Shown in pieces: positions 5,571 through 39,659 of a stretch of DNA of 64,000 bases. Below the pieces are notes generated by a model that saw only the letters and a list, made by a program, of their open reading frames with translations, had not been told where the DNA came from and did not search any database. Numbering within the stretch: the first letter of the stretch is position 1; each line of letters starts with the position of its first letter. The translations under genes were made by a program, and so were the position numbers. The stretch is from positions 15,815 to 79,814 of the forward strand of contig JANQFW010000089.1 of NCBI GenBank assembly GCA_028277625.1, given 5' to 3'. Source of the stretch: Candidatus Gastranaerophilales bacterium. GTDB taxonomy: Bacteria; Cyanobacteriota; Vampirovibrionia; Gastranaerophilales; JANQFW01.

Positions 5571-5578
5571 AATATGTT

Positions 5579-5956
5579 TTATTTTTTGCTTGGTTTCCTG
5601 CAAGTATCTGTAATTGAGATAATTGCTGTAGTAATTGCACCTACGAGACCAGTGCCCGCTAGTAAATAACCAAGCTTTTCCTTGTTTTTAAATATAGCTA
5701 AAGCACCTACACAGCACAGAGCAGTCATTACTGCATAAGTGGTCATATAAACTATTCCTTTATCCTTTTCTCCTTTTCTAAAGTGCCTAAGGCCTGGCAA
5801 AAAAGCTGCTGTAAACGCTACTGGTGCAGTATTCCTGCTGAGTGTTGTTTTATTAGGAGAGCCTTCTTGTTTTTTGGCTACAACTTTAATATTGTTATTA
5901 TTAAAAGTCTTAGTAGATTGTAACTGTATTGATCTATTGTGTAGACCTGCTTGCAT
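5579..5956 (-). CDS. hypothetical small membrane protein
   Basis: 125-aa ORF with a polar N-terminus and two or three hydrophobic segments in the C-terminal half. No family recognised. Confidence 0.5.
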   Translation of the reverse strand: MQAGLHNRSIQLQSTKTFNNNNIKVVAKKQEGSPNKTTLSRNTAPVAFTAAFLPGLRHFRKGEKDKGIVYMTTYAVMTALCCVGALAIFKNKEKLGYLLAGTGLVGAITTAIISITDTCRKPSKK

Positions 5957-6046
5957 ATTTATTTTCCCAATTTATTAGTTTTTATTATTTATAATAAATA
6001 AAAACATATTAAATATAAATAAAATAAATTTAAATATTTACATTAT

Positions 6047-6352
6047 TCAATCTTCTGAGTATACTTCCTTCAGGTCATCAGCCAATGCCACAGGAGTTGC
6101 AAAGGAAGATCCACATATACATGTTAATGCTTCATTTTTAGAGTTATCAGGGCTGTAAGAAATTTTATTACCCTTTTTAAGATTAATCACGAAACCGTTG
6201 TATATACTCCCTGTTCTGGAGTGAAAAACTTCAGGAATCAACTTTAATGGGTTAAATGAAAATTTTTTTTTATTAAGGGTTGAGGGTTCATCTTCTGTCT
6301 CACCTGACTCTTTTAAGAGGAATTTTCCTTTATTCAATATAGCTTCTTTCAT
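6047..6352 (-). CDS. hypothetical protein
   Basis: 101-aa ORF co-directional with its neighbours. No family recognised. Confidence 0.45.
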   Translation of the reverse strand: MKEAILNKGKFLLKESGETEDEPSTLNKKKFSFNPLKLIPEVFHSRTGSIYNGFVINLKKGNKISYSPDNSKNEALTCICGSSFATPVALADDLKEVYSED

Positions 6353-6398
6353 GTCAAACCTTAAGTCAGGGAGTTCTTTATAGTAATCTTTATTATTT

Positions 6399-6680
6399 TT
6401 AATACTGATATTGATAGTATTCTTTTAGGGCAGAAAAAACTTCATCTAAAGCATAGAGGTCATACTCTAGACTTGCTTCACTATTTGATTCACTGTCATA
6501 AGTTTCACCGCTAATCTGCCTTGAGAAATCTTTATCAAAAGAACAAAGTGATGCTGGTATTTTAATTGGGTTTAAGCTATCAACGTGCATTTTTAACTCT
6601 CCACTTTTGGAGTACATTATACTAATGTTTATATTTATCGATAAGAGAACTCTTTGCAGAGTAAGGCTCAACATTCCCAT
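6399..6680 (-). CDS. hypothetical small acidic protein (start probably 6590)
   Basis: The ORF track gives 93 aa. An internal ATG at 6590 (MHVDSLNP...) is preceded by GGAGAG at good spacing, so the upstream part is more likely an untranslated structured leader. Confidence 0.4.
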   Translation of the reverse strand: MGMLSLTLQRVLLSININISIMYSKSGELKMHVDSLNPIKIPASLCSFDKDFSRQISGETYDSESNSEASLEYDLYALDEVFSALKEYYQYQY

Positions 6681-8601: not shown

Positions 8602-10044
8602 ATGGTTAAGAAAAGAATTCTATCAATTACATTTTTGACAAGTGTATTGGCATTGAATTTTATAAATCCTTGTCTTGCAATGTTTGAGAGGGCTATATTA
8701 TCTAAAATAGCAATAACCCCTCAAAATAACGGGACATATAAAATTCTTGTCAAAACAGATAGAGATGTACCTATTAACAAAATAGTTAAATCAAAAAATA
8801 AAATTGTTTTAGACCTAAAAAATACAAAAGCATCTAAATTTGTTAATACTATATATAATAACTCTTTAGGTGTGGATCACGTAATAGTACAGCCTATTTC
8901 TGACAATAGGGTTAAGGTCTTCATAGAGGGTGAGAATATCTCATACAGCAATATCGTTCTCGACTCAAGAAGAGGCTTTTCGGTATTTGAGGGCTTAAGT
9001 AAAGAAGTTGATTACTCAAATCCTGTTTATTATAACGACCAGCCAACATTGGCTAATAACAAAGGTAAACCTAATTACAACTTAGGTTCCCCAGGGGATA
9101 TTGAACCGGTTCAATACATAGATGAACCACCCCCTATTAAACAAGATATTTTTAATCAAGCTAGTAAAAATGTTCAACCTAAAAAGGTTACAAAAAACAA
9201 GCCTGAACCTGTTAAAGCAAAAGAGTTTAAGAAGCAAGTAAATAAAAATACTCCTGAGGTTAATAACGTAGTTAACACTACCAGAGCTAAAAATAACAAC
9301 AACTATAAAAATACAGCTTATACAGACAAACAAACCAATAATTATAATCAAGAAGCGTATCAGGGGGGTAATTATTACAATAACAAAAATAATTATCAGT
9401 CCCAAAGAAGAAGTGCAGGTGCACTTTCAGGCTCAATGCATTCAAAGGTATCTGTGCTATCTGATGAAACGATATTAAGCAAGTTGTTTTCTTTAGATAT
9501 TTTTGATTGGGGTTTAAGATTTTTAGTATTGGCTTTTATTATCGTAGCGAGCTACAAGTTATTCTTTAGAAAACAACCTAAGTACACCATAGACTTAACT
9601 GATGACGATATGAGAGAAAGAGAATTAGCATTATTAAAGTCTATGAACGATAAATACGCGGCTACCAGCAATTCTAACTCTGGCTATGAAAGAAAACCAT
9701 CAAAAAAAGACGGGTACAGCTCCTTTACACAATATGGCTTAAATGAATACCAAAACAGCCAATTGCCACCAAGCAACAAGCCCAGAAAAGGACAAAAACC
9801 TATTGGTGTAAGAAAACAAAAACAAGTGCAAACACCAAGACCCGCAGCTAGAAAAAAAGTTCAACCACCACCGGAAAATACACCGAGTAAGCCTAAAATG
9901 ACTAGTAGGGAAAGTGAGTCTGAAAAAATAAGCATAGATAACAAAAGGTTCCTGGAGAAAATGGCGAAGATCTATGAAAAAAGCGGACGAAGTGATTTAG
10001 CTGAAGGAATACAAAATAATATAAAAAAAAGAACGATAATGTGA
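8602..10044 (+). CDS. AMIN-domain-like secreted/membrane protein with low-complexity Asn/Lys/Pro-rich regions
   Basis: GAGGAG RBS precedes the ATG at 8602 (the ORF track starts at GTG 8590). Signal-peptide-like N-terminus. The segment ITPQNNGTYKILVKTDRDV...KIVLDLKNTK...VDHVIVQPISDNRVKVFIEG matches the AMIN-domain pattern. One TM (FLVLAFIIVASYKLFF). Confidence 0.6.
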   Translation: MVKKRILSITFLTSVLALNFINPCLAMFERAILSKIAITPQNNGTYKILVKTDRDVPINKIVKSKNKIVLDLKNTKASKFVNTIYNNSLGVDHVIVQPISDNRVKVFIEGENISYSNIVLDSRRGFSVFEGLSKEVDYSNPVYYNDQPTLANNKGKPNYNLGSPGDIEPVQYIDEPPPIKQDIFNQASKNVQPKKVTKNKPEPVKAKEFKKQVNKNTPEVNNVVNTTRAKNNNNYKNTAYTDKQTNNYNQEAYQGGNYYNNKNNYQSQRRSAGALSGSMHSKVSVLSDETILSKLFSLDIFDWGLRFLVLAFIIVASYKLFFRKQPKYTIDLTDDDMRERELALLKSMNDKYAATSNSNSGYERKPSKKDGYSSFTQYGLNEYQNSQLPPSNKPRKGQKPIGVRKQKQVQTPRPAARKKVQPPPENTPSKPKMTSRESESEKISIDNKRFLEKMAKIYEKSGRSDLAEGIQNNIKKRTIM

Positions 10045-10058
10045 TGTCTTAAAAAGTA

Positions 10059-10088
10059 GGGGGAAGCGAAAGCTTCCTCTTTTTTTTA
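10059..10088 (+). terminator. rho-independent terminator
   Basis: GGGGAAGC-GAAA-GCTTCCTC stem-loop followed by T8, 15 nt after the stop at 10044. The reverse strand also has a U-rich tail, so it may serve the convergent toxin gene too. Confidence 0.7.
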
Positions 10089-10118
10089 TGGATTTTATTT
10101 AATTACCGTTATTTGATG

Positions 10119-10415
10119 CTAAGGATGAGGAGTAATAGCTATAATTGTAATTTCTCTCTTATCCGGTCCATAATACCAGAAGATCCTATATGCCGCAGGT
10201 GTGTTATTTTCTGCATAAGCTTCATATATTTTAAATCCATACGCCTTTGTTAACGAAGTGTATTCATGTGTATTTAACCCTGGATGTCGAGGATTAATCT
10301 CTAAGTAGCCAAGGGTTTTCCTTACTGCATTTAATCGCTTTTTTAGGCTTTTATCAGACTCAAGCTTATTTAGTTCAGCGTCAGCCCGATCTGTAAATAA
10401 TAATTCAAAAGTCAT
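10119..10415 (-). CDS. type II toxin, RelE/ParE-superfamily-like
   Basis: 98-aa ORF overlapping the upstream antitoxin-like gene by 4 nt (ATGA). Size and C-terminal ..REITIIAITPHP are typical of RelE/ParE-type toxins. Confidence 0.6.
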   Translation of the reverse strand: MTFELLFTDRADAELNKLESDKSLKKRLNAVRKTLGYLEINPRHPGLNTHEYTSLTKAYGFKIYEAYAENNTPAAYRIFWYYGPDKREITIIAITPHP

Positions 10416-10693
10416 TCTTCTATTTCATCTTTATCTTCTGTATATTCGGTAAAGCTTCCGCGTTTCTTAACTTTTCCTGATGCAGCATTCTGCAATCCTT
10501 CTTTGACTGCATTAAGTGCTTCTTTATTTTGGAAGAGCCAAGCTTCTTTCGCGGGTATTTCCACTTGTGGCTCAAGAAGAATAGAACCATCATTATTAAA
10601 GTGGACTTCATAGCTGCTTATGTTTTTTGCGATACTGCCTAGGGTTATTCTCCCTTTAGAATCAGGCTTTAAGTATTTTTTAGGAGTAGCCAT
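10412..10693 (-). CDS. AbrB/MazE/SpoVT-type antitoxin
   Basis: 93-aa ORF. The N-terminal KPDSKGRITLGS matches the swapped-hairpin AbrB/SpoVT motif. Acidic C-terminal tail. GGAGG RBS. Confidence 0.7.
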   Translation of the reverse strand: MATPKKYLKPDSKGRITLGSIAKNISSYEVHFNNDGSILLEPQVEIPAKEAWLFQNKEALNAVKEGLQNAASGKVKKRGSFTEYTEDKDEIEE

Positions 10694-10733
10694 TGTTTAT
10701 CCTCCAATTTATAATAATACCATTATAACAAAT

Positions 10734-10758
10734 TGTGGGAATCTTTCAATGTGGGAAT
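10734..10758 (-). promoter_or_regulatory. two direct ATTCCCACA repeats at the -35 position of the toxin-antitoxin promoter (candidate operator)
   Basis: TGTGGGAAT at 10734-10742 and 10750-10758 (16-bp period), just upstream (minus strand) of a TATAAT and the GGAGG-ATG of the antitoxin. Confidence 0.4.
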
Positions 10759-10759
10759 G

Positions 10760-10933
10760 TTAATTTATTAACACTACACCCAATACTTTCTTTAGCTTAC
10801 TGCCTGCGCTTTGACCACTAGTATTAGAAATACTACCAGCAAAAGAAATATTCGATTTAGCATTTTCTCTATCATCCTTAGAGTTGATTCTATTCACTCG
10901 ACCAGCTGAAATTCTGTTAATGTTAATCACCAT
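10760..10933 (-). CDS. possible unannotated 57-aa ORF
   Basis: ATG at 10933 to TAA at 10760-10762 (below the 60-aa ORF-track cut-off): MVININRISAGRVNRINSKDDRENAKSNISFAGSISNTSGQSAGSKLKKVLGVVLIN. The region is more G+C-rich than neighbouring spacers. GGAGGGA lies about 20 nt upstream. Confidence 0.25.
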   Translation of the reverse strand: MVININRISAGRVNRINSKDDRENAKSNISFAGSISNTSGQSAGSKLKKVLGVVLIN

Positions 10934-11051
10934 AAAGCTTCATAAAAGTCCCTCCATAAAAATAAAAGACAAAAATGAAATAAATTGCTATCCAATACTA
11001 AAAGGATGATACCATTGTATCACCCTTTTAAAATATTATTTCCTAAGCCTG

Positions 11052-11453
11052 TTATACTGATATATCAAGCTTGCTTGACTTTTTTTGATAAGCTTTCAGG
11101 TATTCTTCGGCTTTCTCAATTTTCTTATTGAGGCCTATATTTATACCATCGCAAAAAAATGCATCTTTCACTCGACGTAGGACTCCTATTTTATCAAAAG
11201 GAACCCACTGAGTCTCGTAGTTAGGATCATACTGTTTTATTTGGACCTCAAGCTCTTTAAGCTTTTTTCCATTCTTAAAATATTCTTTTTCTGTATCTAC
11301 TTGATTTTTTAAAACAAAAAGACCTACCACTGTTGCACCCACAGTTACTCCAAGTGCAGATTTGAAGCCAAAATCTTGTTTAGATTTATACGTAGATCTT
11401 GTTTGCTTACAGGAACCTATTTTATAATTTGTCAACATAATAACCACAATCAC
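11052..11453 (-). CDS. hypothetical protein with one TM segment
   Basis: 133-aa ORF with hydrophobic ALGVTVGATVVGLFVL. No family recognised. Confidence 0.45.
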   Translation of the reverse strand: MIVVIMLTNYKIGSCKQTRSTYKSKQDFGFKSALGVTVGATVVGLFVLKNQVDTEKEYFKNGKKLKELEVQIKQYDPNYETQWVPFDKIGVLRRVKDAFFCDGINIGLNKKIEKAEEYLKAYQKKSSKLDISV

Positions 11454-11745
11454 AGTAGTAAACTCAAATATTTAAAGATATAAGATAAATAAAAAATATA
11501 CTATCTATGAAACTAGTATATTATAAAAAGAATTATTAAGGATTAAATTGTAACAAAATATTATCAATAAATTTACAGTAATTACAGGTATAAATTATTT
11601 AAAAAACTACAGTAAACAAAAATATAACAATAAAAAAATGTTACTATCATTTGAATAAACGAACTATTACTAAGCTATTTCTTTATCGGCCTTAACTTCT
11701 AATCTAAAGCCTAGGCTCTTCAGCATTTTACCTATTGTACAAAAG

Positions 11746-11770
11746 TATAAAAAAAGCGGCAAATGCCGCT
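11746..11770 (-). terminator. rho-independent terminator of the flagellar operon
   Basis: On the minus strand, AGCGGC-AUUU-GCCGCU followed by U7-8, about 40 nt after the flgL stop. Confidence 0.75.
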
Positions 11771-11808
11771 TAAATTAATTAAGTGAGATGATTAATATAT
11801 TTAATTCT

Positions 11809-12744
11809 TTAAATCTTTCCTAATAAACTTGGCTGTATAGCTCTTGCACTGGCAGATAAAGAAGCCTGCAAAGCTGTCTCCTGAAACTTAATCTCAGAAA
11901 TAACCTTAGCAAGGTCAATATCTTGATTGGCAGACAAAAACTTTGTATAAGTAAGCTCATCATCAGCAAGCTTATTCTTTGTCATATCAAGTCTAGTCAA
12001 CCTACCACCAAGCTCTGCCTGCACATTAAGCAAGTTATCCAAGTCATCATCCAATACATCCAGCTGCTCTCTAATATTATCTTTAGAGGGGGTATCGGAT
12101 TTTAACTCATTACTTATGGTCTTAAGGGTGTTCAATAACCCATGCTGCTGCGGAGGATCAGAGCTAGTATCATACTGACCAAATACTTCATCCGCAACCA
12201 TGTTTATAGGCATAGTAACATTTTGGCTAATTTCAACATTCCTTTCAAAGCTCTCATCAGATTTAGTACCCTTATACGAAATATTGTCACCATCAACATC
12301 ATAAGGCTCTCTATCTGTTATCTTTCCACCAAATAAAAATTTAGAATTATATCTAGTATTACCTAAATCCATAATACGATTAACTAACTGGTCCATTTCA
12401 TTAGCTATATCCTTCATCTGATCAGAACCAAGTGTAGTATTAGATGCCTGCACAGTAAGTTCTTTAGCCCTATGCACAACATCAACAGCGCTTAATACTG
12501 ATCGATCAGCAATATTCAATTCTGCTGTAGCATAATCAATATTAGTCTTAAATGTATCAATAGAACCCAAAACCTTTTTATTAAACATAATATTCATAGA
12601 TGCAACAGTATTATCAGATGGCTTGTTAACCGCCTTACCAGATGCCAGCTGCTCATTTAAATCATTAAATTTTGATCTATTTACAAGAAGATTGTCTATA
12701 ATATTATCATTTAGCAATCTATCTGTTATTCTTGTGTAAACCAT
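11809..12744 (-). CDS. flgL: flagellar hook-associated protein 3 (flagellin-family)
   Basis: 311 aa. Flagellin-type N-terminus (RITDRLL..N....L...S.....LASGK....PSDN) and C-terminus. Sits directly after flgK. Confidence 0.85.
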   Translation of the reverse strand: MVYTRITDRLLNDNIIDNLLVNRSKFNDLNEQLASGKAVNKPSDNTVASMNIMFNKKVLGSIDTFKTNIDYATAELNIADRSVLSAVDVVHRAKELTVQASNTTLGSDQMKDIANEMDQLVNRIMDLGNTRYNSKFLFGGKITDREPYDVDGDNISYKGTKSDESFERNVEISQNVTMPINMVADEVFGQYDTSSDPPQQHGLLNTLKTISNELKSDTPSKDNIREQLDVLDDDLDNLLNVQAELGGRLTRLDMTKNKLADDELTYTKFLSANQDIDLAKVISEIKFQETALQASLSASARAIQPSLLGKI

Positions 12745-12765
12745 ATCTCACTTATCCCTATACAC

Positions 12766-14331
12766 TTAAACTATATTAATTATTGTTTCTAAGGCTTTAT
12801 TAACAGAGTTTAACACTTTAGCAGAAGCCTCATACGCTCTTTGATACTTAAGCAAATCGGTTAGCTCTTCATCCAGGTTAACACCCATGATAGACTCACG
12901 CTTTGTCTTGATATTTTTCATAATAGAATCCTGAGCCTCATAACTCTGTTTAATACTGCTGGATTCAATACCAATCTTACCCACTACTGAACTCAAAAAG
13001 TCCTCAAATGTAGCATTTTCAAGATCAGAATTATACTCATTCCTCAACTGAGCTATAGCAAGAGCGTTACTACCATCACCTTTTTCTAAAACATTATCAG
13101 AGGTAGCAGTTGCGATCTTAAAGACATCTTTTACAATATTGCCATTAACACTAAGGTTAGAAGCAGTTATATCAGCAATATCACCATTCTCATCAACAAA
13201 AATATTTTCAGGTACTTCATCAGGGTTATTAACAGGATCACTAAGCCTATTTTCCTCAATAACAATATATTTTCCTGCAGTCTGAATATTATTAACAGCT
13301 TCAGCGAATTCTTGAGCTAGCTTGTTTAATTTAGCCATAATATTATTAGTTGTTAACTTGTCAGGGTCATCAAAGTCATAACTAACTGAGTCAAGAACCC
13401 CTGCAATCTGGCCGGTATCAAACAAGTCATTAGCATTATCATTAACAACAACGTCATCTTCGATTCTTGTCAGGGTAATAACAGTAGGATCATAGCTACC
13501 TTCAGCTCCAGCTCCCATAGACTCAGTATTAAACTCAACACCGAATTCAATATGCTTAGTATCACCATCTAATATCTCATAATTGCCTATAGCTATAGAG
13601 AGATTATTATTTGCTTTTTCTGTAACCTCAATAGGTACATATTCAGCGATTTTATCTAATAAACGATCTCTTTCATCCATCAAGCCGTTAGGGGCAGTAC
13701 CCATAGCCGAGGAAAGACCAATAACCCTGTTTAATTCAATCAATGCATCAAACTTAGTATTTAATTCTGATGTGATAAGACCCAGTTTTGACTTATCAAG
13801 TGACCCGGGGTTGGCTGAATTGCCTACAAGATTTTCTTGAATGCTTGTTAATTGATTAGCTGTATTATTAAAATTCTGTGTCAGATCCATTGCCTTTTGT
13901 ACAAAATTAGTCCTGGTAACAGAATCCACAGGATCCATACTTAACTTGTGAGAAGCATCATAAAACTGTACAAAAGCATCGCTAATGCCGCCTTCGTCCA
14001 ATTCATTAGCTGCATCTTCTATCAATGAGATATTAGAATCAAGCTCTTTATAATAATTAAAAGTAGTTGATTCGCTTCTATAATAATTGTCAAAGTAGGT
14101 TTCGCGATTTCTGGTAACAGTATCAACCATAGAGCCGACACCCATTTGAGCTGCAACACTACCAATATTAGAACCCGTACTCATTACAACTTTTTGTGAA
14201 AGCTCCAAGCGTTGTTTACTATATCCAGGCGTGTTTATATTGGCTATATTATTATTAATAAGGTTAATAGCTGCTTGATTTAATTGCAAAGATCTCTGTG
14301 CTGTATATATCCCAAACATACTGGATGGCAT
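12766..14331 (-). CDS. flgK: flagellar hook-associated protein 1
   Basis: 521 aa. N-terminal FGIYTAQRSLQLNQAAINLINNNIANINTPGYSKQ and C-terminal LLKYQRAYEASAKV motifs typical of FlgK. Confidence 0.9.
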   Translation of the reverse strand: MPSSMFGIYTAQRSLQLNQAAINLINNNIANINTPGYSKQRLELSQKVVMSTGSNIGSVAAQMGVGSMVDTVTRNRETYFDNYYRSESTTFNYYKELDSNISLIEDAANELDEGGISDAFVQFYDASHKLSMDPVDSVTRTNFVQKAMDLTQNFNNTANQLTSIQENLVGNSANPGSLDKSKLGLITSELNTKFDALIELNRVIGLSSAMGTAPNGLMDERDRLLDKIAEYVPIEVTEKANNNLSIAIGNYEILDGDTKHIEFGVEFNTESMGAGAEGSYDPTVITLTRIEDDVVVNDNANDLFDTGQIAGVLDSVSYDFDDPDKLTTNNIMAKLNKLAQEFAEAVNNIQTAGKYIVIEENRLSDPVNNPDEVPENIFVDENGDIADITASNLSVNGNIVKDVFKIATATSDNVLEKGDGSNALAIAQLRNEYNSDLENATFEDFLSSVVGKIGIESSSIKQSYEAQDSIMKNIKTKRESIMGVNLDEELTDLLKYQRAYEASAKVLNSVNKALETIINIV

Positions 14332-14438
14332 TTTCTTTTCTCCCCAAGGTTTTAAAGTAAAATTTCTTTTTAGGCTTGCCTGCCATAGGCTTCACCTATA
14401 TAATAGCCATTTGGAATCTCTTCTTAATTAATATATAT

Positions 14439-14918
14439 TTAAGCTTCTTCAACTATAGAGCTTAAACTTATAGAGCTTTTAAGATCATTCTTTCTTCCCA
14501 AGCTATCATAAGAAGAATTTTGAGGTTTAAATGCACTGACTATAATATCAACAGTACCTTCCACCATCCTCATAGAATGCTTTAGCAGCTCTGTATTTAT
14601 AAAATTCATTTTTTTTATGCTTTCAGCCTTATTTTTTAATCTATTTGACTTACTTAGTATTCTTTTTTTGTTTATATCATTTTTTAAATTGAATAAAAAA
14701 TCAGCAATCTTTTTATCACCGGTCAAGGTTAATCTTTGTTCTGCTAAATCCTTAATATTGCCGGATACTTCTTGAATCAAAATATCTATGTTATTTAATT
14801 GCTCTAAGTCGCTGTTTATTAGAGCATCTCTCTTCTGAATCATATAATTTTCTAATGCCGAATATGATTCAATTTCCTTATTTATAAAATTTTCTAATTC
14901 TAATAAATTATTCACCAA
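14439..14918 (-). CDS. flgN: FlgN-like flagellar export chaperone
   Basis: 159-aa helical protein immediately upstream of flgK. The N-terminal Y..LE.....K..ALI..DLE.L pattern resembles the FlgN family. TTG start with a G6 RBS. Confidence 0.5.
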   Translation of the reverse strand: MVNNLLELENFINKEIESYSALENYMIQKRDALINSDLEQLNNIDILIQEVSGNIKDLAEQRLTLTGDKKIADFLFNLKNDINKKRILSKSNRLKNKAESIKKMNFINTELLKHSMRMVEGTVDIIVSAFKPQNSSYDSLGRKNDLKSSISLSSIVEEA

Positions 14919-15034
14919 AACAAATCCCCCCGGCCTTACAACCCAAAACAGTGATTATAAAAAACCAGAACTAAAACCAATACTACAATCTCAAACGTAC
15001 AAAACAGTTATCAGATTTTATTTTCCACCTTCCC

Positions 15035-15247
15035 TCAATTACCAATAAGCCTGCAAATTACATCATGGGCAACATGGTTATAAACAGAGGTTTCATGCTT
15101 CAATCCCGACATACCTGCACGGACCAGTTTTTTGACATGAATAAAATCATGCAACATGCCATCATTATCATGATTCAACCTACAACACTCAGGAGCTTCA
15201 TTAAGCCTATTTAAATATTCTTTTTGACTCATAATACATAAAAACAT
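15035..15247 (-). CDS. hypothetical 70-aa His/Cys-rich protein in the position usually held by flgM
   Basis: GAGGTG RBS 5 nt before the ATG. Sequence is not FlgM-like (4 Cys, 6 His). Confidence 0.5.
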   Translation of the reverse strand: MFLCIMSQKEYLNRLNEAPECCRLNHDNDGMLHDFIHVKKLVRAGMSGLKHETSVYNHVAHDVICRLIGN

Positions 15248-15277
15248 GAAATCACCTCTAAATGATCATTATATAAC

Positions 15278-15613
15278 TCATGACTGTCGCTTCATTTGTT
15301 CATAAACCTGTTTAGCCATCCCCATACTGGTTGAAGGATTAGAAGAAATCTTCAAAGCAATCTCTTGATTTAGCATCGATTTAAAAGTTTCTTCTCCTCT
15401 ACCACCACTAATAAATCCGGATTTTTCAACAGTAGAGTCCATAACATCTATTAATTTTTTAACGAAAATAGCCTCGAACTCGCCAGCTGTTTTCATTAAC
15501 TTTTCATCATCCTTATCAGCTTTTTGCAAAGACTTGATATTATTCTCTAACGCATCAAGGTTAGAACCGTTCATATTATATATAGTTGAATTAATATCCA
15601 CAGGATTCATCAT
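15278..15613 (-). CDS. flagellar rod-binding protein (FlgJ N-terminal domain only)
   Basis: 111 aa. AGEFEAIFVKKLIDVM...TFKSMLNQEIA matches the Rod_binding (FlgJ N-terminal) pattern. No glucosaminidase domain. Confidence 0.75.
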   Translation of the reverse strand: MMNPVDINSTIYNMNGSNLDALENNIKSLQKADKDDEKLMKTAGEFEAIFVKKLIDVMDSTVEKSGFISGGRGEETFKSMLNQEIALKISSNPSTSMGMAKQVYEQMKRQS

Positions 15614-15643
15614 TCTTCATACCTCCAGCAAGGTTTACCTAAC

Positions 15644-16753
15644 CTAAATAATTTCCAATGCCGCTTGCAAGCTGCCGGCAGCTTTTAACGCCTGCAGAAT
15701 AGAAATTAAATCATAAGGACTAACCCCTATTGAGTTTAAAGCAGTAACCAACTCGCTTAAGTTAGCATTAGAGGCAAGTTCTACTACATTACCAGGTTGC
15801 TTATCAACACTGATTTCCGTATCTTTAACTACTTCTGTACTGCCTTCTCCCAGTGGATTAGGCTGAGAGACCTCACTTGTGGACTTGACCGTCACTGTCA
15901 AGTTGCCGTGAGCAACAGCGGCAGGCAATAATTTAACTTCACTACCTATAACAATAGTTCCGGTTCTCTCATTTATAACTACTCGTGCAGCATTTTCAGT
16001 AGTATCAACTCTTAAATTTTCAAGAATAGAAATAAAACCAATCTTGTTTGACCTAAATTTTTCAGGAATCAAGATCTTTATTGTATTACCATCTATGGCT
16101 TTAGCTTTAGCCAGATTATCGCTTACGGTCTGAGTAATTCTTGCAGCCATAGTAAAATCTGATCTGTTTAGTACCAGCTTTAAGCTTTTCTCGCCACCAA
16201 TTGGTGTATTTATATCTCTTTCGATAATAGCACCATTAGGTATTCTACCTGATGTTGAAATTGTTGTTTTTACCCTACTTCCACCAGCAGAAATATCAGT
16301 CCCACCAGTACTAACAGGACCTTGTGCCATAGCAATGACTTCACCATTTGGAGCCAAAAGCTGAGCTTGAACTAAAACTCCACCCTCTAAACTCTTTGCA
16401 TCAGCAAGAGAAGAAACAATAATGTCAATTTTATCTCCACTTTTTGCAAATGGTGGCACTTTTGCAGTTATAATAACTGCAGCTGTATTACCTTTTTTAA
16501 TATCATTACTATTTGTTATTACAGTACCCAGATTAGAAAGCATTGCTTGATTGGTTATTTGCGTTGATCTACTGTTATCTCCGGTGCCCGGTAAACCAAC
16601 GACTATACCATAACCAACAAGTTGATTCTCTCTAATACCATCAATATGTGTTACATCTTTAATTCTGACACTTGTTGCAAAAGACGCTGGTGTCATTATA
16701 TTCAGTAATATCAATAAAAATAATAATAAAATAATTTTAATTTTCTTAATCAT
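15644..16753 (-). CDS. flgI: flagellar P-ring protein
   Basis: FlgI-like over its full length (RIKDV...RENQLVGYGIVVGL.GTGD...). Signal peptide. The ATG at 16753 follows AGGTGGGA (the ORF track starts at GTG 16765). Confidence 0.95.
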   Translation of the reverse strand: MIKKIKIILLLFLLILLNIMTPASFATSVRIKDVTHIDGIRENQLVGYGIVVGLPGTGDNSRSTQITNQAMLSNLGTVITNSNDIKKGNTAAVIITAKVPPFAKSGDKIDIIVSSLADAKSLEGGVLVQAQLLAPNGEVIAMAQGPVSTGGTDISAGGSRVKTTISTSGRIPNGAIIERDINTPIGGEKSLKLVLNRSDFTMAARITQTVSDNLAKAKAIDGNTIKILIPEKFRSNKIGFISILENLRVDTTENAARVVINERTGTIVIGSEVKLLPAAVAHGNLTVTVKSTSEVSQPNPLGEGSTEVVKDTEISVDKQPGNVVELASNANLSELVTALNSIGVSPYDLISILQALKAAGSLQAALEII

Positions 16754-21332: not shown

Positions 21333-22475
21333 CTACCTCCTGACAGTTCCGGCTTCTACCGAATAAATATCAACATCTTGTAAATAATCAGAGTCAAATT
21401 TATCAACATCTACAGTGGTAATTATAGTTTGGGTATTCTCTTTTATTGAATCTAAAAGGTATTGCTGCCGAAACCTATCCAGTTCAGCAAGTACATCATC
21501 CAGCAACAACAAAGGATTATCATGTATTATATTTTCCACAAAGTCAAGCTCTGCCAATTTTAAAGCTAAAACAATTGTGCGCTGTTGGCCTTGAGAAGCA
21601 TACTGCCTAGCATCCAAGTCGTTTATAAAAAATAAAATATCATCACGATGAGGTCCTATAAGAGTTTGCCCCCTTATCAATTCTTCTTTTTGCTTCTTCT
21701 CAATATTTTGTTCAAATAGTTCCGCAATAAGCTTTGAGGGCTGTACATCATCTTCAATACAATTGAAATCACCTGCTACAGATGAATTATATTTTATACA
21801 CAACAGCTCATCCCCGTACGAAATATGCTTATGCTTCTCCATTGCCCTTATTTGAATTTCTTTTAAAAATTTCTGTCTTAAATGCACCAAATTACTACCA
21901 GATATTATAAATTGGTCATTCCAGACAGAGAGAAAGTCTTGTTGATAATCAGTTAATGATATTTTGCCTTTATATTCTTTAATTAAATTGCTTCTTTGAA
22001 CTCTTATTTTATTGTATTTTAATAATCTATCCTTATAAGCAGGATATAATTGCCCAATAGCGTCATCAATCCATTTTCTTCTATCTGCAGGATTTCCTCT
22101 TAATAAGAGTAAATCATTGATACAAAAGTTAACAATAGCCAAATTACCTATAAATTGTGAATATTTTGTTTTTTTAAGAGCATTAACTTTAATAATTTTC
22201 TTTTTAGAAGGATTTAAAATAACATCTAGTTTAATATCTGTATAATTTTTATTAATAATACCTGTAATTTTTGCTACATCATGTCCTTTTAATACCAATT
22301 CATTATCATTAGATGCTCTAATAGAAGACAATGTAGCTAAATAATAAATGGATTCAAGTAAATTTGTTTTACCTTGCGCATTTTTTCCTACAAAAATTGT
22401 TTTATTTTTGGAAAAATTCAGCTTACATTCTCTATAATTTCTAAAATTAGTTAAGTGTAGCTCTTTCAAAAACAT
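21333..22475 (-). CDS. recF: DNA replication and repair protein RecF
   Basis: Walker A GKNAQGKTNLLESIYYL and ABC-signature/Walker B-like C-terminus (SQGQQRT..LALKLAE...LLLDDV.AELD). The ATG at 22475 lies 7 nt after the dnaN stop; the ORF-track start at 22529 would overlap dnaN. Confidence 0.9.
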   Translation of the reverse strand: MFLKELHLTNFRNYRECKLNFSKNKTIFVGKNAQGKTNLLESIYYLATLSSIRASNDNELVLKGHDVAKITGIINKNYTDIKLDVILNPSKKKIIKVNALKKTKYSQFIGNLAIVNFCINDLLLLRGNPADRRKWIDDAIGQLYPAYKDRLLKYNKIRVQRSNLIKEYKGKISLTDYQQDFLSVWNDQFIISGSNLVHLRQKFLKEIQIRAMEKHKHISYGDELLCIKYNSSVAGDFNCIEDDVQPSKLIAELFEQNIEKKQKEELIRGQTLIGPHRDDILFFINDLDARQYASQGQQRTIVLALKLAELDFVENIIHDNPLLLLDDVLAELDRFRQQYLLDSIKENTQTIITTVDVDKFDSDYLQDVDIYSVEAGTVRR

Positions 22476-22482
22476 GATGAAA

Positions 22483-23595
22483 TTATTTAATCTGAACAGG
22501 CATAACCAAACATAAATAATCTTCATCACTGTCTGGTTTTATCAGAGCAGCAGCAAGAGGTTCACCCATTTCCAGCTTTATTTTTTCTGTATCTACAGCT
22601 TTTAAAGTATCAAGCATATATTTATAATTGAAAGCTATTAATATATCTTCACTATCGTATTCTATTTCCATTTGATCAGCAGAATCACCAAGGTCAGGTG
22701 TATCAGCAGAAAGATTTAAGATATTATTGTTAAAGTTTAACCTGATGATGTTAGTACGCTCATTGACCATTGTAGAGGTGCGCTCAAGAGCTAAGATAAA
22801 GTCTTCTCTGTTGATGAATGCACACTTTGCATAATCAGCAGGTATTAATTGTTGATATTTAGGGTATTGGCCGTCAAGAAGTCTGGAAGTTATAATTATA
22901 TCTTTAAAATTGAATAAAATCATTCCACTGTTTATTATAATATCAACATATTCAGCACTGCATGCAGCAACTAAACGGATAAACTCATTTAAGATTCGAG
23001 AAGGAATTATAACAGAATATTCTTGCTCAAGCTTGGTTTCTATGTTTTGAATGATTCTGGCAAGCCTATTTCCATCGGTGGCAGCCATTTCCAGGTATTC
23101 ATTTTTTATCAGGCAGAAGACCCCGCTTAAAACATTGTTTGAATCATAATCAGCTGTAGCAAAAGAAGTCTGCTTTATGGCTTTTAATAGAGGTTCAACA
23201 TTGAGGTTTATGGATTCTTCATACTCAGGATAAAGTAAGTCCGGAAATTCTGATGCAGGAATGCCAACTAAGTCAAACTTTGAGCGTGAACATTTTATCT
23301 GAGTATGATTAGTTTCAGAATCTAGTGTAAAGTTTACAGGTTTGTTTGGTAGTTTAGAAATAATTTCTGTAAGTTTTTTGGCAGGTAATGTAATACTTCC
23401 TGCATTCTCTACAGTTGCTTCTATTTTGGTTTCTATAGAGATGTCTAAGTCTGTTGCACAAAATTTTATTAAATTATTGTCTACAGTTTCTATTAAAATA
23501 TTAGCCAAAACTGGTTGAACACCTCTTATTGAGGTTGCTTTAGCTACATAGTTAATTCCAGCTTGTAATGTTTCTTTTTCAATAACAAATTTCAT
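22483..23595 (-). CDS. dnaN: DNA polymerase III beta sliding clamp
   Basis: 370 aa, DnaN-like over its full length (three-domain length, ...LANILIE.....L...ATDL...). Confidence 0.95.
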   Translation of the reverse strand: MKFVIEKETLQAGINYVAKATSIRGVQPVLANILIETVDNNLIKFCATDLDISIETKIEATVENAGSITLPAKKLTEIISKLPNKPVNFTLDSETNHTQIKCSRSKFDLVGIPASEFPDLLYPEYEESINLNVEPLLKAIKQTSFATADYDSNNVLSGVFCLIKNEYLEMAATDGNRLARIIQNIETKLEQEYSVIIPSRILNEFIRLVAACSAEYVDIIINSGMILFNFKDIIITSRLLDGQYPKYQQLIPADYAKCAFINREDFILALERTSTMVNERTNIIRLNFNNNILNLSADTPDLGDSADQMEIEYDSEDILIAFNYKYMLDTLKAVDTEKIKLEMGEPLAAALIKPDSDEDYLCLVMPVQIK

Positions 23596-23701
23596 ATCCC
23601 ATTTTTCCCCATTAAAAGTTAAATTTTCTTCTTTATTATTTATTACTTTCTATATAATTAATAAAAATATATAAAATTAGTAGTAGTAGGTAATACCTTT
23701 T

Positions 23702-23870
23702 ACTTGTAGAAAACTGATTGGAATTTAATAATATCTTATTTTTTACTTGTAGAAAAGTTGTTTAATACATGTTCAAAACTCGTATTCTTTTCTACAATCT
23801 AAAATTTGTCTACAAAGTCTTTCTACAAGCTTCTTATGTTTTTCTACAAGTTTTCTACAAGTTTTCTACA
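23702..23870. promoter_or_regulatory. DnaA-box cluster; core of candidate oriC (whole spacer 23596-24367)
   Basis: Eight 9-mers of the type TTTTCTACA. Reverse orientation: 23705-13 and 23748-56. Forward: 23788-96, 23806-14 (TTGTCTACA), 23819-27 (CTTTCTACA), 23840-48, 23851-59 and 23862-70. The last three are spaced exactly 11 bp apart. A 770-bp AT-rich non-coding spacer lies next to dnaN. Confidence 0.7.
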
Positions 23871-24367
23871 GAAAGATAAATCATTGTTTAATAAGCTTTT
23901 TTCTAATCAACCCTATTCATGATGGTTTTATTTATTCAAACATGTATTTATTCAGTATGATTAACATTCGAGGATACTCATACATGTAAATATTTATAAT
24001 TCCTTTATCTTGACTTGCTTAAACTTTGAGAATTATTGTCCTACATGTTTTTTTATTTTATTAGATACACAATTTTTTGTTCTTTCCATGTTTTTTATTT
24101 GTTGAAATCATGGAATTTAAATGATAATATTCTTCTCCTTTATTTAATTTGCTCAATATCCCTAATCTTTTAAGATACACATTTAAAGTTTTTACAAAGA
24201 TAACAGTCCCTAGTGTTCTTTGTACTTAGTCTGTTTTACATATCGGATTATACCATAGTTCACTGGCCTAAAAAGACTTATCTTAAGAAAACTTATCAAA
24301 TTGTTATATGAGAAATTATAAGGATTTATTATCCTCTATAAAGTTATTGTTATTTAAATTAGTCTTT

Positions 24368-24667
24368 TTATTGTTTAAAATCACTAGCTTTTACTGAGTG
24401 AACCCAGCGAGCAAAGTTTTGTTGTTCATAACTTAAGGCAAATTGATACAATGATTCTATCAGGCTTGCGCCTGATTTTGATTTACCTAAAAGCATGTAT
24501 GCACCAAATTTATTTTTTATAAGGGCTATTTCTTTATGAATGACCTTTTCTATATTGTTTTCAGGCTTTTTAGATAAAATATCTTTTATCCATCTTATCA
24601 ATATGATCACAGGAGGAATATCTGCTTGATAACTCCTTATATGTTTAGAAAATGCACTTATTATCAT
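24368..24667 (-). CDS. hypothetical protein
   Basis: 99-aa ORF. No family recognised. Confidence 0.4.
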   Translation of the reverse strand: MIISAFSKHIRSYQADIPPVIILIRWIKDILSKKPENNIEKVIHKEIALIKNKFGAYMLLGKSKSGASLIESLYQFALSYEQQNFARWVHSVKASDFKQ

Positions 24668-24744
24668 TGTTTTGATTTATTTTTTATTGAGTATATTACT
24701 CCTATAATACAATATTTTTTGCTTTTTTTTATTTTATACCTTAC

Positions 24745-26067
24745 TTAACTTATTATGCGATGTGTATATTTTTTTGCGTTTTCACCTGAAAAATCATCTG
24801 AAGTTTGACCATTGCCGTATAGTTTATATTTGTATATTACTAAGCCTTCTAAGCCAACAGGCCCTCTTGCATGTGTCTTGTTTGTGCTTATCCCTACTTC
24901 TGCACCTAGTCCATATCTAAATCCATCAGCAAATCGAGTTGAAGCGTTGTGATAAGTACCGGCTGAGTCTACTAGACTTAGAAATAGATCAGCGTTTTTT
25001 TTGTTTTCTGTAACTATACAGTCTGTATGGCCTGAACCGTAGTTATTAACATGGTCAATCGCTTCATTAATGTCATTAACTGTTTTTATTGATATTATTT
25101 TGTCTGTATACTCAGTTTTCCAGTCTTCTTCGGTGACTTTTTCTATGTCTTCAACTATGCTTAATATGTGTTCATCACCCTTCACTATTACATCAGCTTT
25201 TTTGAATTCATCTATAAGTTTTTTTATGTAATTTGCAGGTATATCTTTGTGAATCAGCAATGTTTCTACGGCATTACATGCCGAGGGGTATTGTATTTTT
25301 GAGTCTATAGTAATTTTTGTTGCTTTATCAAAGTCAGCGTCTTTGTCTATATAGACATGGCAAATACCATCTGCGTGGCCTAATACAGGAATTTTTGTAT
25401 TTGATTGAATATACTTAACCAGGTCATTACTCCCCCTTGGTATAATTAAGTCAATGTATTTGTCCAGTTCCAACATTTTTTGCACTTCATGACGCGTTTT
25501 TATTAAGGTTATTGAATTTTTAGGGAATTCTTCAATTTTGCCCAATGCTTTATTTATTATATTTATTAGTATTTCATTAGATTTGTCTGCTTCACTTCCG
25601 CCTTTTAGAATTACCGCATTTGATGATTTAACCGCTAGTGCTGCGATCTGTGGTACAACATCAGGTCTTGATTCAAAAATTACACCGATAACACCTAGTG
25701 GACAGCTCACTCTGTATAGTTCAAGATCTTTATCAAGTTCAATAGCCCATTCAACTTTGTTTACTGGATCTTCTAGGTTTGCTACATCTTTAATGCCTTG
25801 AACCATTACTTTAATTTTTTCATCATCAAGTTTTAGCCTGTTATACAGAGCTCTTGTCAGCTTGCCGTCTTCTATCATTTTTTCTGCATTAGCAAGATCT
25901 TTTTGGTTTTCTTTTAATATTAATTCTTTATTTTTTTCTATATTATCAGCGATTGCAAATAATGCTTTATTTTTGACCTCTTTGTTCAAAGATGCAAGCT
26001 TATAAGATGCTTGTTTTGAATTTTTTGCAATCTGACTTAAATCTTGTGTTTCACTTATCCCAGTCAT
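24745..26067 (-). CDS. proA: gamma-glutamyl phosphate reductase
   Basis: 440 aa, ProA/aldehyde-dehydrogenase-like over its full length. Sits directly downstream of proB. Confidence 0.95.
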   Translation of the reverse strand: MTGISETQDLSQIAKNSKQASYKLASLNKEVKNKALFAIADNIEKNKELILKENQKDLANAEKMIEDGKLTRALYNRLKLDDEKIKVMVQGIKDVANLEDPVNKVEWAIELDKDLELYRVSCPLGVIGVIFESRPDVVPQIAALAVKSSNAVILKGGSEADKSNEILINIINKALGKIEEFPKNSITLIKTRHEVQKMLELDKYIDLIIPRGSNDLVKYIQSNTKIPVLGHADGICHVYIDKDADFDKATKITIDSKIQYPSACNAVETLLIHKDIPANYIKKLIDEFKKADVIVKGDEHILSIVEDIEKVTEEDWKTEYTDKIISIKTVNDINEAIDHVNNYGSGHTDCIVTENKKNADLFLSLVDSAGTYHNASTRFADGFRYGLGAEVGISTNKTHARGPVGLEGLVIYKYKLYGNGQTSDDFSGENAKKYTHRIIS

Positions 26068-28183: not shown

Positions 28184-28342
28184 TTTAAATTAGGCTCTTT
28201 TTTTGTACTGAATGCCTAGCTTGTGGCGTCCTTTTGCTCTTCTTCTTGCAATAACATTTTTACCGCCTGGTGTTGACATTCTTACTAAGAAGCCACTTTT
28301 GCGTTGTCTTTTTCTTTTAGTTCCTTCTAGGGTACGTTTCAT
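28184..28342 (-). CDS. rpmH: 50S ribosomal protein L34 (not in the ORF track, under 60 aa)
   Basis: Hand translation: [52 protein letters not shown]. The MKRT...KR....GF..RM.T..G..V...RR.KGR..L signature is present, and GAGGAG lies upstream. Confidence 0.9.
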
Positions 28343-37164: not shown

Positions 37165-38271
37165 GTGGATTTTGTTGCAATAACAGTTGAATTTTTAAAA
37201 TTTCTGGCTAACTTAACCGGAAGTTACGGACTGGGAATAGTACTGTTTACTTTAGTTATTAGGGCTGCGATGTGGCCACTAAGTTTTTCTCAGCAGAAAA
37301 GTATGAAAAAAATGCAGGAGCTAGCTCCTAAGTTGAAACAGCTACAAGCAAGATATAAAAGTGATCCTCAGGCTATGCAAATGAAAATGATGGAGTTTTA
37401 TAAAGAACATAAGTTTAATCCGCTTGGTGGTTGCGTTCCATTAATGGTACAAATGCCTATATTTATTTTGCTTTATGCGGCTTTGATAAGTCCTCAGTTT
37501 ATGGATTTATCTGGTAATTCATCTTTTATGTTTATAAATAAACTAAGTTCAACTTTAAGAGATAGAGCTGGTGTTGTTGGTGATGCTACGTTTGCTGTAG
37601 AAAGACAAGATCGGTTTGTTCTTGATAAGCATGTTAAGGTTTATTTGAAAGACGGGAAAACTCTTGATAATGCAATAATACTTAATGAAAAGAAAGCTAT
37701 AGATAAGCCTGAGCAGATTATTCCAGGACAAACTGTTAAGTTTGGTATTAGCTTAAGCAATTTGGATTTACCTTATGAAGAGTTAGGTAAAGTCGAAAAA
37801 GCTGATATTACTGTAATAAACGAAAATACCAAGGAAATTGAGCATATAACTTTTAAAGTTAAAGATTCTAAATTGTCTGCTGATATAAAAACTGAAAAAG
37901 TTGAAACAAAGTTTAATTATGATGTTTTAACTTTAATTATATTGTTCGCGGTAACTATGATGATTACTCAAAAGATAATGAGTAAAATGTCTAATACTGC
38001 AGCTATGGATCCTATGCAAAAGAACATGCAAGAAAAAATGGCTAAAATTATGCCTGTGGCAATAGTTGTTCCTTTGGTATTTATCCCAATACCTGCGGGT
38101 GTGTTCTTATACTTTGTGGTTAGCAATGTCTTCCAGATAGCGCAAACAGTTATAATAAATAAACAGTTGGATGCTGCCAGTAAGGCAAGTGGTCCTGACG
38201 TTATACAAGCAGAAACTGTTGAAAAAAAAACTCTAAATAATGATAATCATCAAAAAATTAGTCATAAATAG
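37165..38271 (+). CDS. yidC: membrane protein insertase YidC/Oxa1 family, with about 130-aa insertion
   Basis: GLGIVLFTLVIRAAMWPLS..Q.KSM.KMQ.L.P....L..RYK.D.......M.EFYKEHK.NP..GC.P...Q.PIF..LY is the YidC core. GTG start. Confidence 0.9.
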   Translation: MDFVAITVEFLKFLANLTGSYGLGIVLFTLVIRAAMWPLSFSQQKSMKKMQELAPKLKQLQARYKSDPQAMQMKMMEFYKEHKFNPLGGCVPLMVQMPIFILLYAALISPQFMDLSGNSSFMFINKLSSTLRDRAGVVGDATFAVERQDRFVLDKHVKVYLKDGKTLDNAIILNEKKAIDKPEQIIPGQTVKFGISLSNLDLPYEELGKVEKADITVINENTKEIEHITFKVKDSKLSADIKTEKVETKFNYDVLTLIILFAVTMMITQKIMSKMSNTAAMDPMQKNMQEKMAKIMPVAIVVPLVFIPIPAGVFLYFVVSNVFQIAQTVIINKQLDAASKASGPDVIQAETVEKKTLNNDNHQKISHK

Positions 38272-38273
38272 TT

Positions 38274-39659
38274 ATGAATTACATTATTAATGATACAATA
38301 GCAGCAATTGCAACGCCTCTTGGTACAGGAGGTGTTGCTGTTATTAGGATAAGTGGTGAAAAAGTTTTTGATATTATTTCAGAAATTTTTTCTTTGAGCT
38401 TAAAGAATAAAAAATTACCTGACTTTGAGGCTAATAAAATATATTATGGTTGGATAAAAGATAATGATAATCTGATTGATCAAGTATTATTATTATTATT
38501 TAGAGGGCCTAAGAGTTTTACTGGCGAAGATGTTATAGAAATTCATTGCCATGGTGGGATTAATGTAACTAAGAATATTCTGCAACTTTGTTTGAATGCT
38601 GGTGCAAGATCGGCAACGCGTGGAGAATTTAGTAAACGAGCTTTTTTGAATGGGAAGATGGGCTTGACTGAGGCTGAGGCTATACTAGATATTATTCATT
38701 CGCGCACAGATAAGTTTTCTCAGATTTCTGCTTATAATTTATCAGGGAAGTTATCTTTTTATATAAAAGAGATAAAAAGTGAGGTTATAAACCTTTTGTC
38801 AGAGGTTATAGCTGCTCTTGATTTTTCTGAGGAGGTTGATGAGCCTGAATATAGCTATATAGTAGAGCGTATAAATGATATTGTTGTTAAGATTAACAAT
38901 GTTTTAAGGTCTTCTAATAATTCTAACTTAATGAGGCAGGGTTTGAAAGTGGCCATAGCTGGCAAGCCTAATGTTGGTAAATCTTCGTTATTTAACACTT
39001 TATTGGATATACAGAGGGCCATTGTTACTGATATTGCTGGGACTACTCGTGACATTATTCAAGAATCTTTAGATGTGGATGGTATTCCTGTTACATTGAT
39101 AGATACTGCTGGTATTCGAGAATTGGAAAATGAAACACATAGTGATCAAATTGAATCTATTGGTATAAATATTGCTAAAGATCATATACAAAGCGCGGAT
39201 ATAGTTTTATTTTTGTATGACTTGACTAAAGGTATGCAGGAGCAAGATATTGATATTTTTTCTGAAATAAAAGATAAGCCAGTAATAAAAGTGGGGTCTA
39301 AGGTTGATCTGATTGATAACCTTGATAAATTGGTGCAGCAAGATGGGCATGATTGTATGATATCAACAAAAACCCGTGAGGGAATTGAGACTGTGAAACA
39401 AAAAATAAAAGAACTAGTATTATCTGCAAATGATATTGATAATAGTGAGTATGCTACAAATATTAGGCATCAGGAGTGTTTATTTAATGCTAAAAAATCA
39501 TTATTACTGGCTGTTGATTCTTGCCAAAACTATGCACCTCAGGATTTTGTATCTATAGATTTGAAGGCTGCACTGTTGTCTCTTGATGAGATAACAGGAG
39601 AGGTTGTTACTGAAGAAATTTTAGACAATATTTTTTCTAATTTCTGTATTGGTAAGTAG
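38274..39659 (+). CDS. mnmE: tRNA modification GTPase MnmE
   Basis: 461 aa. G-domain motifs GKPNVGKSSLFN and DTAGIR, and the characteristic C-terminal CIGK. Confidence 0.95.
   Translation: MNYIINDTIAAIATPLGTGGVAVIRISGEKVFDIISEIFSLSLKNKKLPDFEANKIYYGWIKDNDNLIDQVLLLLFRGPKSFTGEDVIEIHCHGGINVTKNILQLCLNAGARSATRGEFSKRAFLNGKMGLTEAEAILDIIHSRTDKFSQISAYNLSGKLSFYIKEIKSEVINLLSEVIAALDFSEEVDEPEYSYIVERINDIVVKINNVLRSSNNSNLMRQGLKVAIAGKPNVGKSSLFNTLLDIQRAIVTDIAGTTRDIIQESLDVDGIPVTLIDTAGIRELENETHSDQIESIGINIAKDHIQSADIVLFLYDLTKGMQEQDIDIFSEIKDKPVIKVGSKVDLIDNLDKLVQQDGHDCMISTKTREGIETVKQKIKELVLSANDIDNSEYATNIRHQECLFNAKKSLLLAVDSCQNYAPQDFVSIDLKAALLSLDEITGEVVTEEILDNIFSNFCIGK

Follow-up and report, generated by a model that had tools for sequence, protein, structure and literature searches.

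A predicted DnaA-box/DnaA-trio replication origin beside dnaN in a Candidatus Gastranaerophilales bacterium

Where chromosome replication starts in Melainabacteria/Vampirovibrionia, the non-photosynthetic and uncultured sister group of cyanobacteria found in gut and groundwater, is the question raised by a 772-bp intergenic spacer lying directly upstream of dnaN in a 64-kb stretch of DNA (hereafter the window) from Candidatus Gastranaerophilales bacterium. This spacer is very probably the chromosomal origin of replication (oriC) of that bacterium and is predicted to function as an origin of the DnaA-box/DnaA-trio type. An oriC is expected to present at least three DnaA boxes in non-coding DNA, an A/T-rich unwinding element beside them and a switch of strand composition with the polarity of an origin, to which the cyanobacterial type adds a position directly upstream of dnaN with dnaA unlinked. 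In the spacer, eight to nine boxes are packed in 166 bp, an A/T-rich element adjoins them as a prediction from composition only, the switch occurs at the site in the window as well as in the three related loci L001, L002 and L005, and dnaN follows directly with dnaA unlinked. The preliminary description of this DNA had proposed an oriC of the cyanobacterial, dnaN-adjacent type, and this proposal is supported by the lineage, the skew at third codon positions (GC3 skew) in four genomes, the conservation footprint of the boxes, the order-wide layout and the module formed by trios and A/T stretch. As for the lineage, the DnaN of the window is 92% and 90% identical to those of two Candidatus Gastranaerophilales metagenome-assembled genomes.

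Regarding the box array (Table 1), all eight boxes of the TTTTCTACA type previously listed, two in minus and six in plus orientation, are found where they had been placed, within 166 bp (23705-23870) and 110-280 bp upstream of the dnaN start; the last three start at 23840, 23851 and 23862, that is phased at exactly 11 bp, and TTTTCTACA does differ by a single mismatch from the cyanobacterial box TTTTCCACA. The latter is not used in the array, its sole copy among the sites with at most one mismatch being located at 21532, inside recF. The window holds ten exact copies of TTTTCTACA, six of them in the array, and the boxes at 23705-23713 and 23748-23756 share an identical 16-nt context, TTTTACTTGTAGAAAA. 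From the density of sites with at most one mismatch in the window, about 0.2 boxes would be expected per 170 bp, which gives a Poisson probability of ~5e-11 for at least eight in a 170-bp stretch, and 5000 Markov simulations with the spacer's own composition returned a mean of 0.9 boxes and a maximum of 6 against the 8 observed. Such repeats could be a chance product of A/T-rich intergenic DNA, considering that the genome has a G+C content of ~31%, that T-rich 9-mers are common and that 75 sites with at most one mismatch to the box are scattered over the window, or else the iterons of an integrated plasmid or phage replicon, which direct repeats phased at 11 bp superficially resemble. Both possibilities are effectively refuted by a clustering far above that of the simulations, by a syntenic position in about 30 loci, by a unit that is a 9-bp box in both orientations and not an iteron of 17-22 bp, and by the housekeeping neighbours, namely proBA, dnaN, recF, dciA and flagellar genes, with no rep, integrase or mobile-element genes flanking. 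The spacer contains no open reading frame of at least 60 amino acids, gives no match in Rfam to any RNA family and holds no terminator-like site.

Between the array and dnaN lies the second component of the putative origin. Read in dnaN orientation, the core consists of the box TTTTCTACA (23713-23705), 15 nt, the trio string CTACTACTACTA (23689-23678) and 29 nt of pure A/T (23679-23651), the latter being the longest A/T-only run of the spacer; the 40-mers of lowest stability in the spacer begin at 23620-23660, and the least stable DNA abuts the trios. In basal unwinding systems, a box has at least three trios (3'-NAN-5', preferably 3'-GAT-5') no more than 16 bp away, the spacer being usually 10-13 bp long, and a single box is sufficient in vitro in Bacillus subtilis (PMC8287927). 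Here, four GAT trios stand 15 bp from the proximal box, whose polarity would direct a DnaA oligomer onto the trio strand, as it must (a box 5'-TTATCCACA-3' on the strand that reads 5'-CTA-3'). The co-oriented boxes are two or three in number, 43 and 65 bp from one another, and not in tandem. Since the box-trio-A/T module, the least stable DNA and the conserved geometry are all found there, the unwinding site is probably about 23620-23690, as predicted from the sequence, rather than the AT-rich repeats at 23930-24101 that the preliminary description had listed after the boxes; these repeats belong to the distal half of the spacer, where conservation is lower: in a three-way alignment of the window with L001 and L002, 65% of its columns are invariant, compared with 91% of the 109 columns lying between proximal box and dnaN ATG.

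In the same alignment, the columns within boxes are almost all invariant (79/81, 98%), against 53/85 (62%) of those between boxes (Fisher p = 3.6e-9), the trios are unchanged in L001 and L002 and likewise in L005, and the stretch 23620-23679 is identical in L001 and L002. Beyond these close relatives, a metagenome scan with a DnaN profile retrieved 80 further loci with DnaN identities of 59-44%, and the layout of boxes upstream of dnaN recurs in about 30 loci, down to ~45% DnaN identity. In most loci with a DnaN identity of at least ~45% and enough upstream DNA, the densest TTTTNWACA cluster is found immediately upstream of dnaN and comprises 6-11 boxes per 300 bp over a background of 0.2-0.4, the exceptions being L021 and L025 with two boxes each. 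The triplet phased at 11 bp is also present in L005 and many other loci, and box variants dominate some lineages, such as TTTTGAACA, found nine times in L029, and TTTTATACA in L035. The geometry is nearly fixed across the order, that is a proximal box, 14 nt (range 11-20), 3-6 trios and then an A/T stretch, with CTA or TTA as the trio unit in most related loci; a box-trio pair was scored in 21 of 31 loci, and the A/T content of the 40 nt past the trios reaches at least 85% in all of these and at least 93% in 20. A second co-oriented box stands 43 bp upstream of the proximal one in most relatives and 65 bp in some. Apart from these, the group L057-L086 (DnaN 44-45% identical, mostly human-gut contigs of up to 1.2 Mb) lacks orf99, which borders the spacer opposite to dnaN in the window, and shows no TTTTNWACA or TTWTNCACA cluster within 10 kb of dnaN, so that this group must have its origin at another place or rely on a different box.

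Could such an array be nothing but a transcriptional control region for dnaN, where DnaA or another repressor titrates clamp expression while replication starts elsewhere? The array is close enough to the gene for that, the conserved A/T-rich stretch could be just promoter and leader, and DnaA-box clusters other than origins are known in other bacteria. What a promoter does not need is four trios at the right distance and in the right polarity followed by an A/T-only run, all conserved order-wide; besides, the 64-kb window holds no second cluster of TTTTNWACA and none of TTWTNCACA from which replication might start instead. Strand asymmetry bears on the same issue. It was measured at third codon positions, on local stretches of 21-64 kb, raw GC skew having been set aside as confounded by the coding strand (its minimum lies at 26-28 kb). 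Regardless of gene strand, the plus-strand G fraction at G/C third positions rises from 0.39 (6.9-22.5 kb) to 0.66 (up to 64 kb), a single change point bringing a log-likelihood gain of ~115-120 over no change. The gene dnaN itself was treated as uninformative because relatives differ widely in its GC3 skew (-0.44 to +0.43); without it, the support interval of the change point is 21885-24817 in the window, 8791-10174 in L001, 8716-10225 in L002 and 9029-11104 in L005, each of which includes the spacer of its own locus. On either side, G and T are enriched on the strand leaving the site, which is the polarity of an origin. The skew check called for in the preliminary description, carried out here on local sequence, thus places the sign change at the spacer in four genomes, which speaks against a mere control region for dnaN, and we regard that explanation as improbable. 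Of note, the genes at 3396-6680 of the window have zero to positive plus-strand GC3 skew inside an otherwise negative left arm, and this segment may be inverted or recently acquired.

Several observations weigh against an origin of the DnaA-box/DnaA-trio type and have to be set beside those above. When dnaN is included, the change point moves to 22.6 kb, ~1 kb from the boxes, because the third positions of dnaN in the window are C-rich (C3 = 57, G3 = 32); they are G-rich in L001 (48/27) and L002 (55/28) despite 85% DNA identity, and such differences are probably gene-specific codon choice that shifts a naive change point by ~1 kb. The co-oriented pair of boxes is 43 bp apart, unlike the direct tandem of B. 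subtilis, and the 15 nt between box and trios stand at the upper end of the published 10-13 bp peak. The boxes of the array do not match the consensus TTWTNCACA, from which they depart at position 6: over 223 TTTTNNACA sites from 31 loci, this position is T in 74%, A in 24% and C, otherwise nearly invariant in TTWTNCACA, in 1%. Searches of the 64-kb window by tblastn with the DnaA of Escherichia coli or four Melainabacterial DnaAs did not find dnaA, and the arrangement of relatives, with rpmH facing dnaA, is no longer seen in the window, L001 and L002. Position 5 is also variable over the same sites (C 52%, A 26%, G 21%), and the box of this lineage is better written TTTTNWACA. Separately, an origin downstream of dnaN, to which the lagging-like third positions of the gene might have pointed, was dropped in view of the variation of its GC3 skew among relatives.

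The atypical box, the dnaA gene missing from the window and the broken linkage between rpmH and dnaA would also suit an origin at which some non-DnaA initiator recognises the repeats, dnaA having been lost or sidelined as in DnaA-independent cyanobacteria; indeed, dependence on DnaA has been lost repeatedly in cyanobacteria (PMC7198777). A candidate for such a role would be the product of orf99, a conserved protein of 99 amino acids whose orthologues are 61-86% identical and whose gene accompanies the array and dnaN in nearly all Gastranaerophilales-type loci, even in those without proBA and recF. This protein belongs to no Pfam family, one orthologue giving a sub-threshold match to HARE-HTH (E = 0.023), and its single-sequence AlphaFold model, with a predicted local distance difference test (pLDDT) score of 49.7, is too poor for a fold search and hence uninformative. 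Conversely, the GAT trios are a single-strand motif specific to DnaA and are strongly constrained in this very sublineage, the switch of strand composition is sharp here when DnaA-independent cyanobacteria show an irregular skew (PMC7198777), relatives encode DnaA, and, in keeping with the altered box, Melainabacterial DnaA carries substitutions in the helix that recognises the 3' half of DnaA boxes (PMC5742627). All things considered, an initiator other than DnaA appears unlikely at this origin. More specifically, the sublineage made of the window, L001 and L002 might have no dnaA at all, the box-trio-A/T module being run by another initiator perhaps involving the orf99 product; we give this very little credence, but if true it would mean that a DnaA-type origin architecture outlived DnaA.

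As to the whereabouts of dnaA, the statement that the gene is missing from the neighbourhood, and in particular from the spacer and from the region upstream of rpmH, holds for the window; this is no anomaly but the rule in the lineage. In 82 Melainabacteria-type loci, dnaA is never within 10 kb of dnaN, and neither the window nor the dnaN loci yielded a dnaA remnant. Because the unrelated control loci L003 and L004 do have dnaA and dnaN adjacent, the separation of the two genes is a lineage trait, as in cyanobacteria. Melainabacterial DnaAs were reached from Synechocystis DnaA through representatives of 50% clusters and then cluster names, and those named by NCBI as DnaA of Candidatus Melainabacteria bacterium are P0257 and the P0381 family (~65 clusters). 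The P0381-family dnaA genes examined are divergent from rpmH-rnpA with no dnaN nearby, in genomes distant from the window organism (RnpA 31% identical). Judged by sequence identity, the nearest dnaA-bearing relative found is L094, which encodes the DnaA P0260 in the order trmE-yidC-yidD-rnpA-rpmH<>dnaA, again with no dnaN nearby, and whose TrmE (51%), YidC (46%), RnpA (40%) and RpmH (64%) are the best matches to the window among dnaA-bearing loci. In the window, an operon of the L094 type is split into rpmH-rnpA-yidD (28342-27507, minus strand) and yidC-trmE (37165-39656, plus strand), ~9 kb apart and in opposite orientations; a rearrangement in the window lineage took dnaA from its ancestral place facing rpmH. 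The rpmH-dnaA spacers of the DnaA-bearing relatives, namely the P0381-family and P0260 loci examined, contain no box cluster. Among rejected candidates, most of the A/T-rich DnaAs belong to Firmicutes, Dependentiae, the Planctomycetes-Verrucomicrobia-Chlamydiae (PVC) group or unnamed organisms, and the 459-aa P0547 group comes from a Firmicute-type rpmH<>dnaA-dnaN-recF-gyrB locus. Literature searches for dnaA in Melainabacteria, Vampirovibrio or Gastranaerophilales returned nothing relevant, including in the supplements of the eLife 2013 genome paper.

The Melainabacterial DnaAs provide a further clue on the altered box. In E. coli DnaA, helix 434-451 reads the TnCACA half of the box (PMC5742627). 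At the start of this recognition helix, Melainabacterial DnaA has K or T in place of D433 and S in place of T435 or T436, so that P0257, P0260 and the P0381 family read (K/T)H(S/T)(S/T) instead of DHTT (Table 1). These substitutions would match the change of box position 6 from C to T or A, as in a co-variation of protein and DNA, which is suggestive only because D433 is substituted in other phyla too (14 of 121 sequences). Besides, the P0257/P0313 and P0381-family DnaAs have RH(I/V)A(I/M)Y instead of RQIAMY.

Taken together, a DnaA-dependent origin in the spacer could work as follows. DnaA would bind nine boxes of the TTTT(C/G)(T/A)ACA type, six of which point away from dnaN, three of these being phased one helical turn apart, and three toward it. 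With DnaA on the proximal co-oriented box (23705-23713), an ATP-DnaA oligomer would be seeded and would spread onto the four GAT trios of the plus strand (23678-23689), after which the adjacent A/T-only stretch (~23620-23679) would melt. Helicase loading at this place may be aided by DciA, encoded two genes downstream, and forks would depart bidirectionally. The DnaA required would be encoded elsewhere in the genome, as in cyanobacteria.

Compared with known systems, the object is of a known kind, that is a DnaA-box/DnaA-trio origin beside dnaN, and for this lineage it is not described in the literature searched. The left half of the E. coli oriC has the same polarity and distance, since 5'-TTATCCACA-3' (R1), 13 nt and CTAATAAGA (the 13-mers) are found in this arrangement in 5425 of 5426 E. 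coli genomes, where the window has TTTTCTACA, 15 nt and CTACTACTACTA. The E. coli origin is otherwise located between gidA and mioC, far from dnaN, and uses IHF and Fis sites as well as GATC methylation; the origin predicted in the window lies beside dnaN, and none of these other features was seen there, no search aimed at them having been made. The norm in cyanobacteria is an oriC adjacent to dnaN, with TTTTCCACA boxes, dnaA elsewhere and a location at the skew shift point (PMC4674748; PMC7198777). Like the origins of Synechococcus elongatus PCC 7942, Anabaena PCC 7120 and Cyanothece ATCC 51142, the site in the window is intergenic, directly upstream of dnaN and unlinked to dnaA, with multiple T-rich boxes of the TTTTC-ACA form and the skew shift at the site; unlike them, it has T or A at position 6 in its lineage (TTTTCTACA, TTTTATACA, TTTTGAACA) where cyanobacteria have C (TTTTCCACA), its far-side neighbour is a lineage-specific gene of 99 codons' worth of protein, and the host is non-photosynthetic. 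With the basal unwinding systems of B. subtilis incC and Clostridioides difficile oriC2 it shares a box, at least three 3'-GAT-5' trios within 16 bp and an A/T-rich region upstream of dnaN. In C. difficile oriC2, CACCTACTACTATTACTACTA stands ahead of the unwinding element (PMC7561715), and the trio string of the window is nearly the same, on a consistent strand. It differs from both systems in having no dnaA on the other side, co-oriented boxes 43 bp apart instead of in tandem, a box-trio spacer of 14-15 nt that is not clearly G+C-rich, and a variant box sequence. A re-specified box has a precedent in Thermotoga maritima, whose oriC uses a lineage-specific 12-mer, AAACCTACCACC, co-varying with substitutions in DnaA domain IV, as cited in PMC6669920; in the window, the box stays a 9-mer and differs at position 6 only, in addition to position 3 as in cyanobacteria, and its pairing with the protein is putative.

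Such an assignment would locate the chromosomal origin of an uncultured sister group of cyanobacteria, and the layout with dnaN adjacent and dnaA unlinked appears to predate the split from the photosynthetic cyanobacteria. In practical terms, origin finders based on TTWTNCACA or TTTTCCACA miss these origins, while the combination of TTTTNWACA with CTA or TTA trios detects them; the site could serve as an anchor for metagenomic peak-to-trough estimates of growth rate, and the lineage offers a natural test case of how DnaA reads position 6 of its box.

Table 1. Features of the predicted origin and its surroundings in the window, with the DnaA helix segments compared
Feature	Position	Strand	Remarks
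dnaN (DNA polymerase III beta clamp)	22483-23595	minus	Pfam PF00712, PF02767, PF02768; transcription away from the origin
proA/orf99-dnaN intergenic spacer (predicted oriC region), 772 bp	23596-24367	.	predicted functional core ~23620-23870
Probable DNA unwinding element	23620-23679	.	probably overlaps the dnaN promoter and leader too
Four perfect DnaA-trios 5'-TAGTAGTAGTAG-3' (3'-GAT-5' units)	23678-23689	plus	CTACTACTACTA in dnaN orientation; unique in the window
Proximal box TTTTCTACA	23705-23713	minus	co-oriented with dnaN; 15 nt from the trios; polarity as E. coli R1 vs 13-mers
Second co-oriented box TTTTCTACA	23748-23756	minus	43 bp from the proximal box
Ninth, variant box TTTTGAACA	23770-23778	minus	co-oriented; conserved in L001 and L002; absent from the preliminary list
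Box TTTTCTACA, exact	23788-23796	plus	opposite orientation; invariant in the three-way alignment
Box TTGTCTACA	23806-23814	plus	one mismatch
Box CTTTCTACA	23819-23827	plus	one mismatch
Three exact boxes, phased at 11 bp (unit TTTTCTACAAG)	23840-23870	plus	starts at 23840, 23851, 23862
Distal half of the spacer	23871-24367	.	AT-rich repeats and several short blocks conserved among close relatives only
orf99, conserved 99-aa protein	24368-24667	minus	far side of the origin from dnaN; e.g. L005 9176-9475, L029 ~9290-9580
rpmH	28190-28342	minus	faces an alpha-amylase-family gene, not dnaA
Helix segment, E. coli DnaA			FGGRDHTTVLH
Helix segment, Synechocystis DnaA			FGGKDHTTVMY
Helix segment, Melainabacterial P0257			FGNRKHTSAIY
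Helix segment, Melainabacterial P0381 family			LSNRTHSSAIY
Helix segment, Melainabacterial P0260			F-GKKHSTIIY

In the distal half of the spacer, both pairs of AT-rich repeats previously reported are present, namely ATTTATTCA at 23930-23938 and 23946-23954, as well as CATGTTTTTTTATTT (24044-24058) and CATGTTTTTTATTT (24087-24100), the members of this second pair being not identical, as had been thought, but different by one T.

Regarding the gene neighbourhood, the minus-strand order in the window is rpmH-rnpA-yidD-proB-proA-orf99-[spacer]-dnaN-recF-dciA, of which the part from proB to dciA is kept in L001, L002 and L005, the latter on a 2.575-Mb contig with a DnaN 59% identical to that of the window. 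The gene orf99 is a lineage-specific, origin-linked gene. In L020 and L034 (~9000-16500), the block made of box array, dnaN, recF and dciA is inverted with respect to the flanking proBA-orf99 and flagellar genes, and this inversion has placed orf99 downstream of dciA; the origin and dnaN travel as a single unit.

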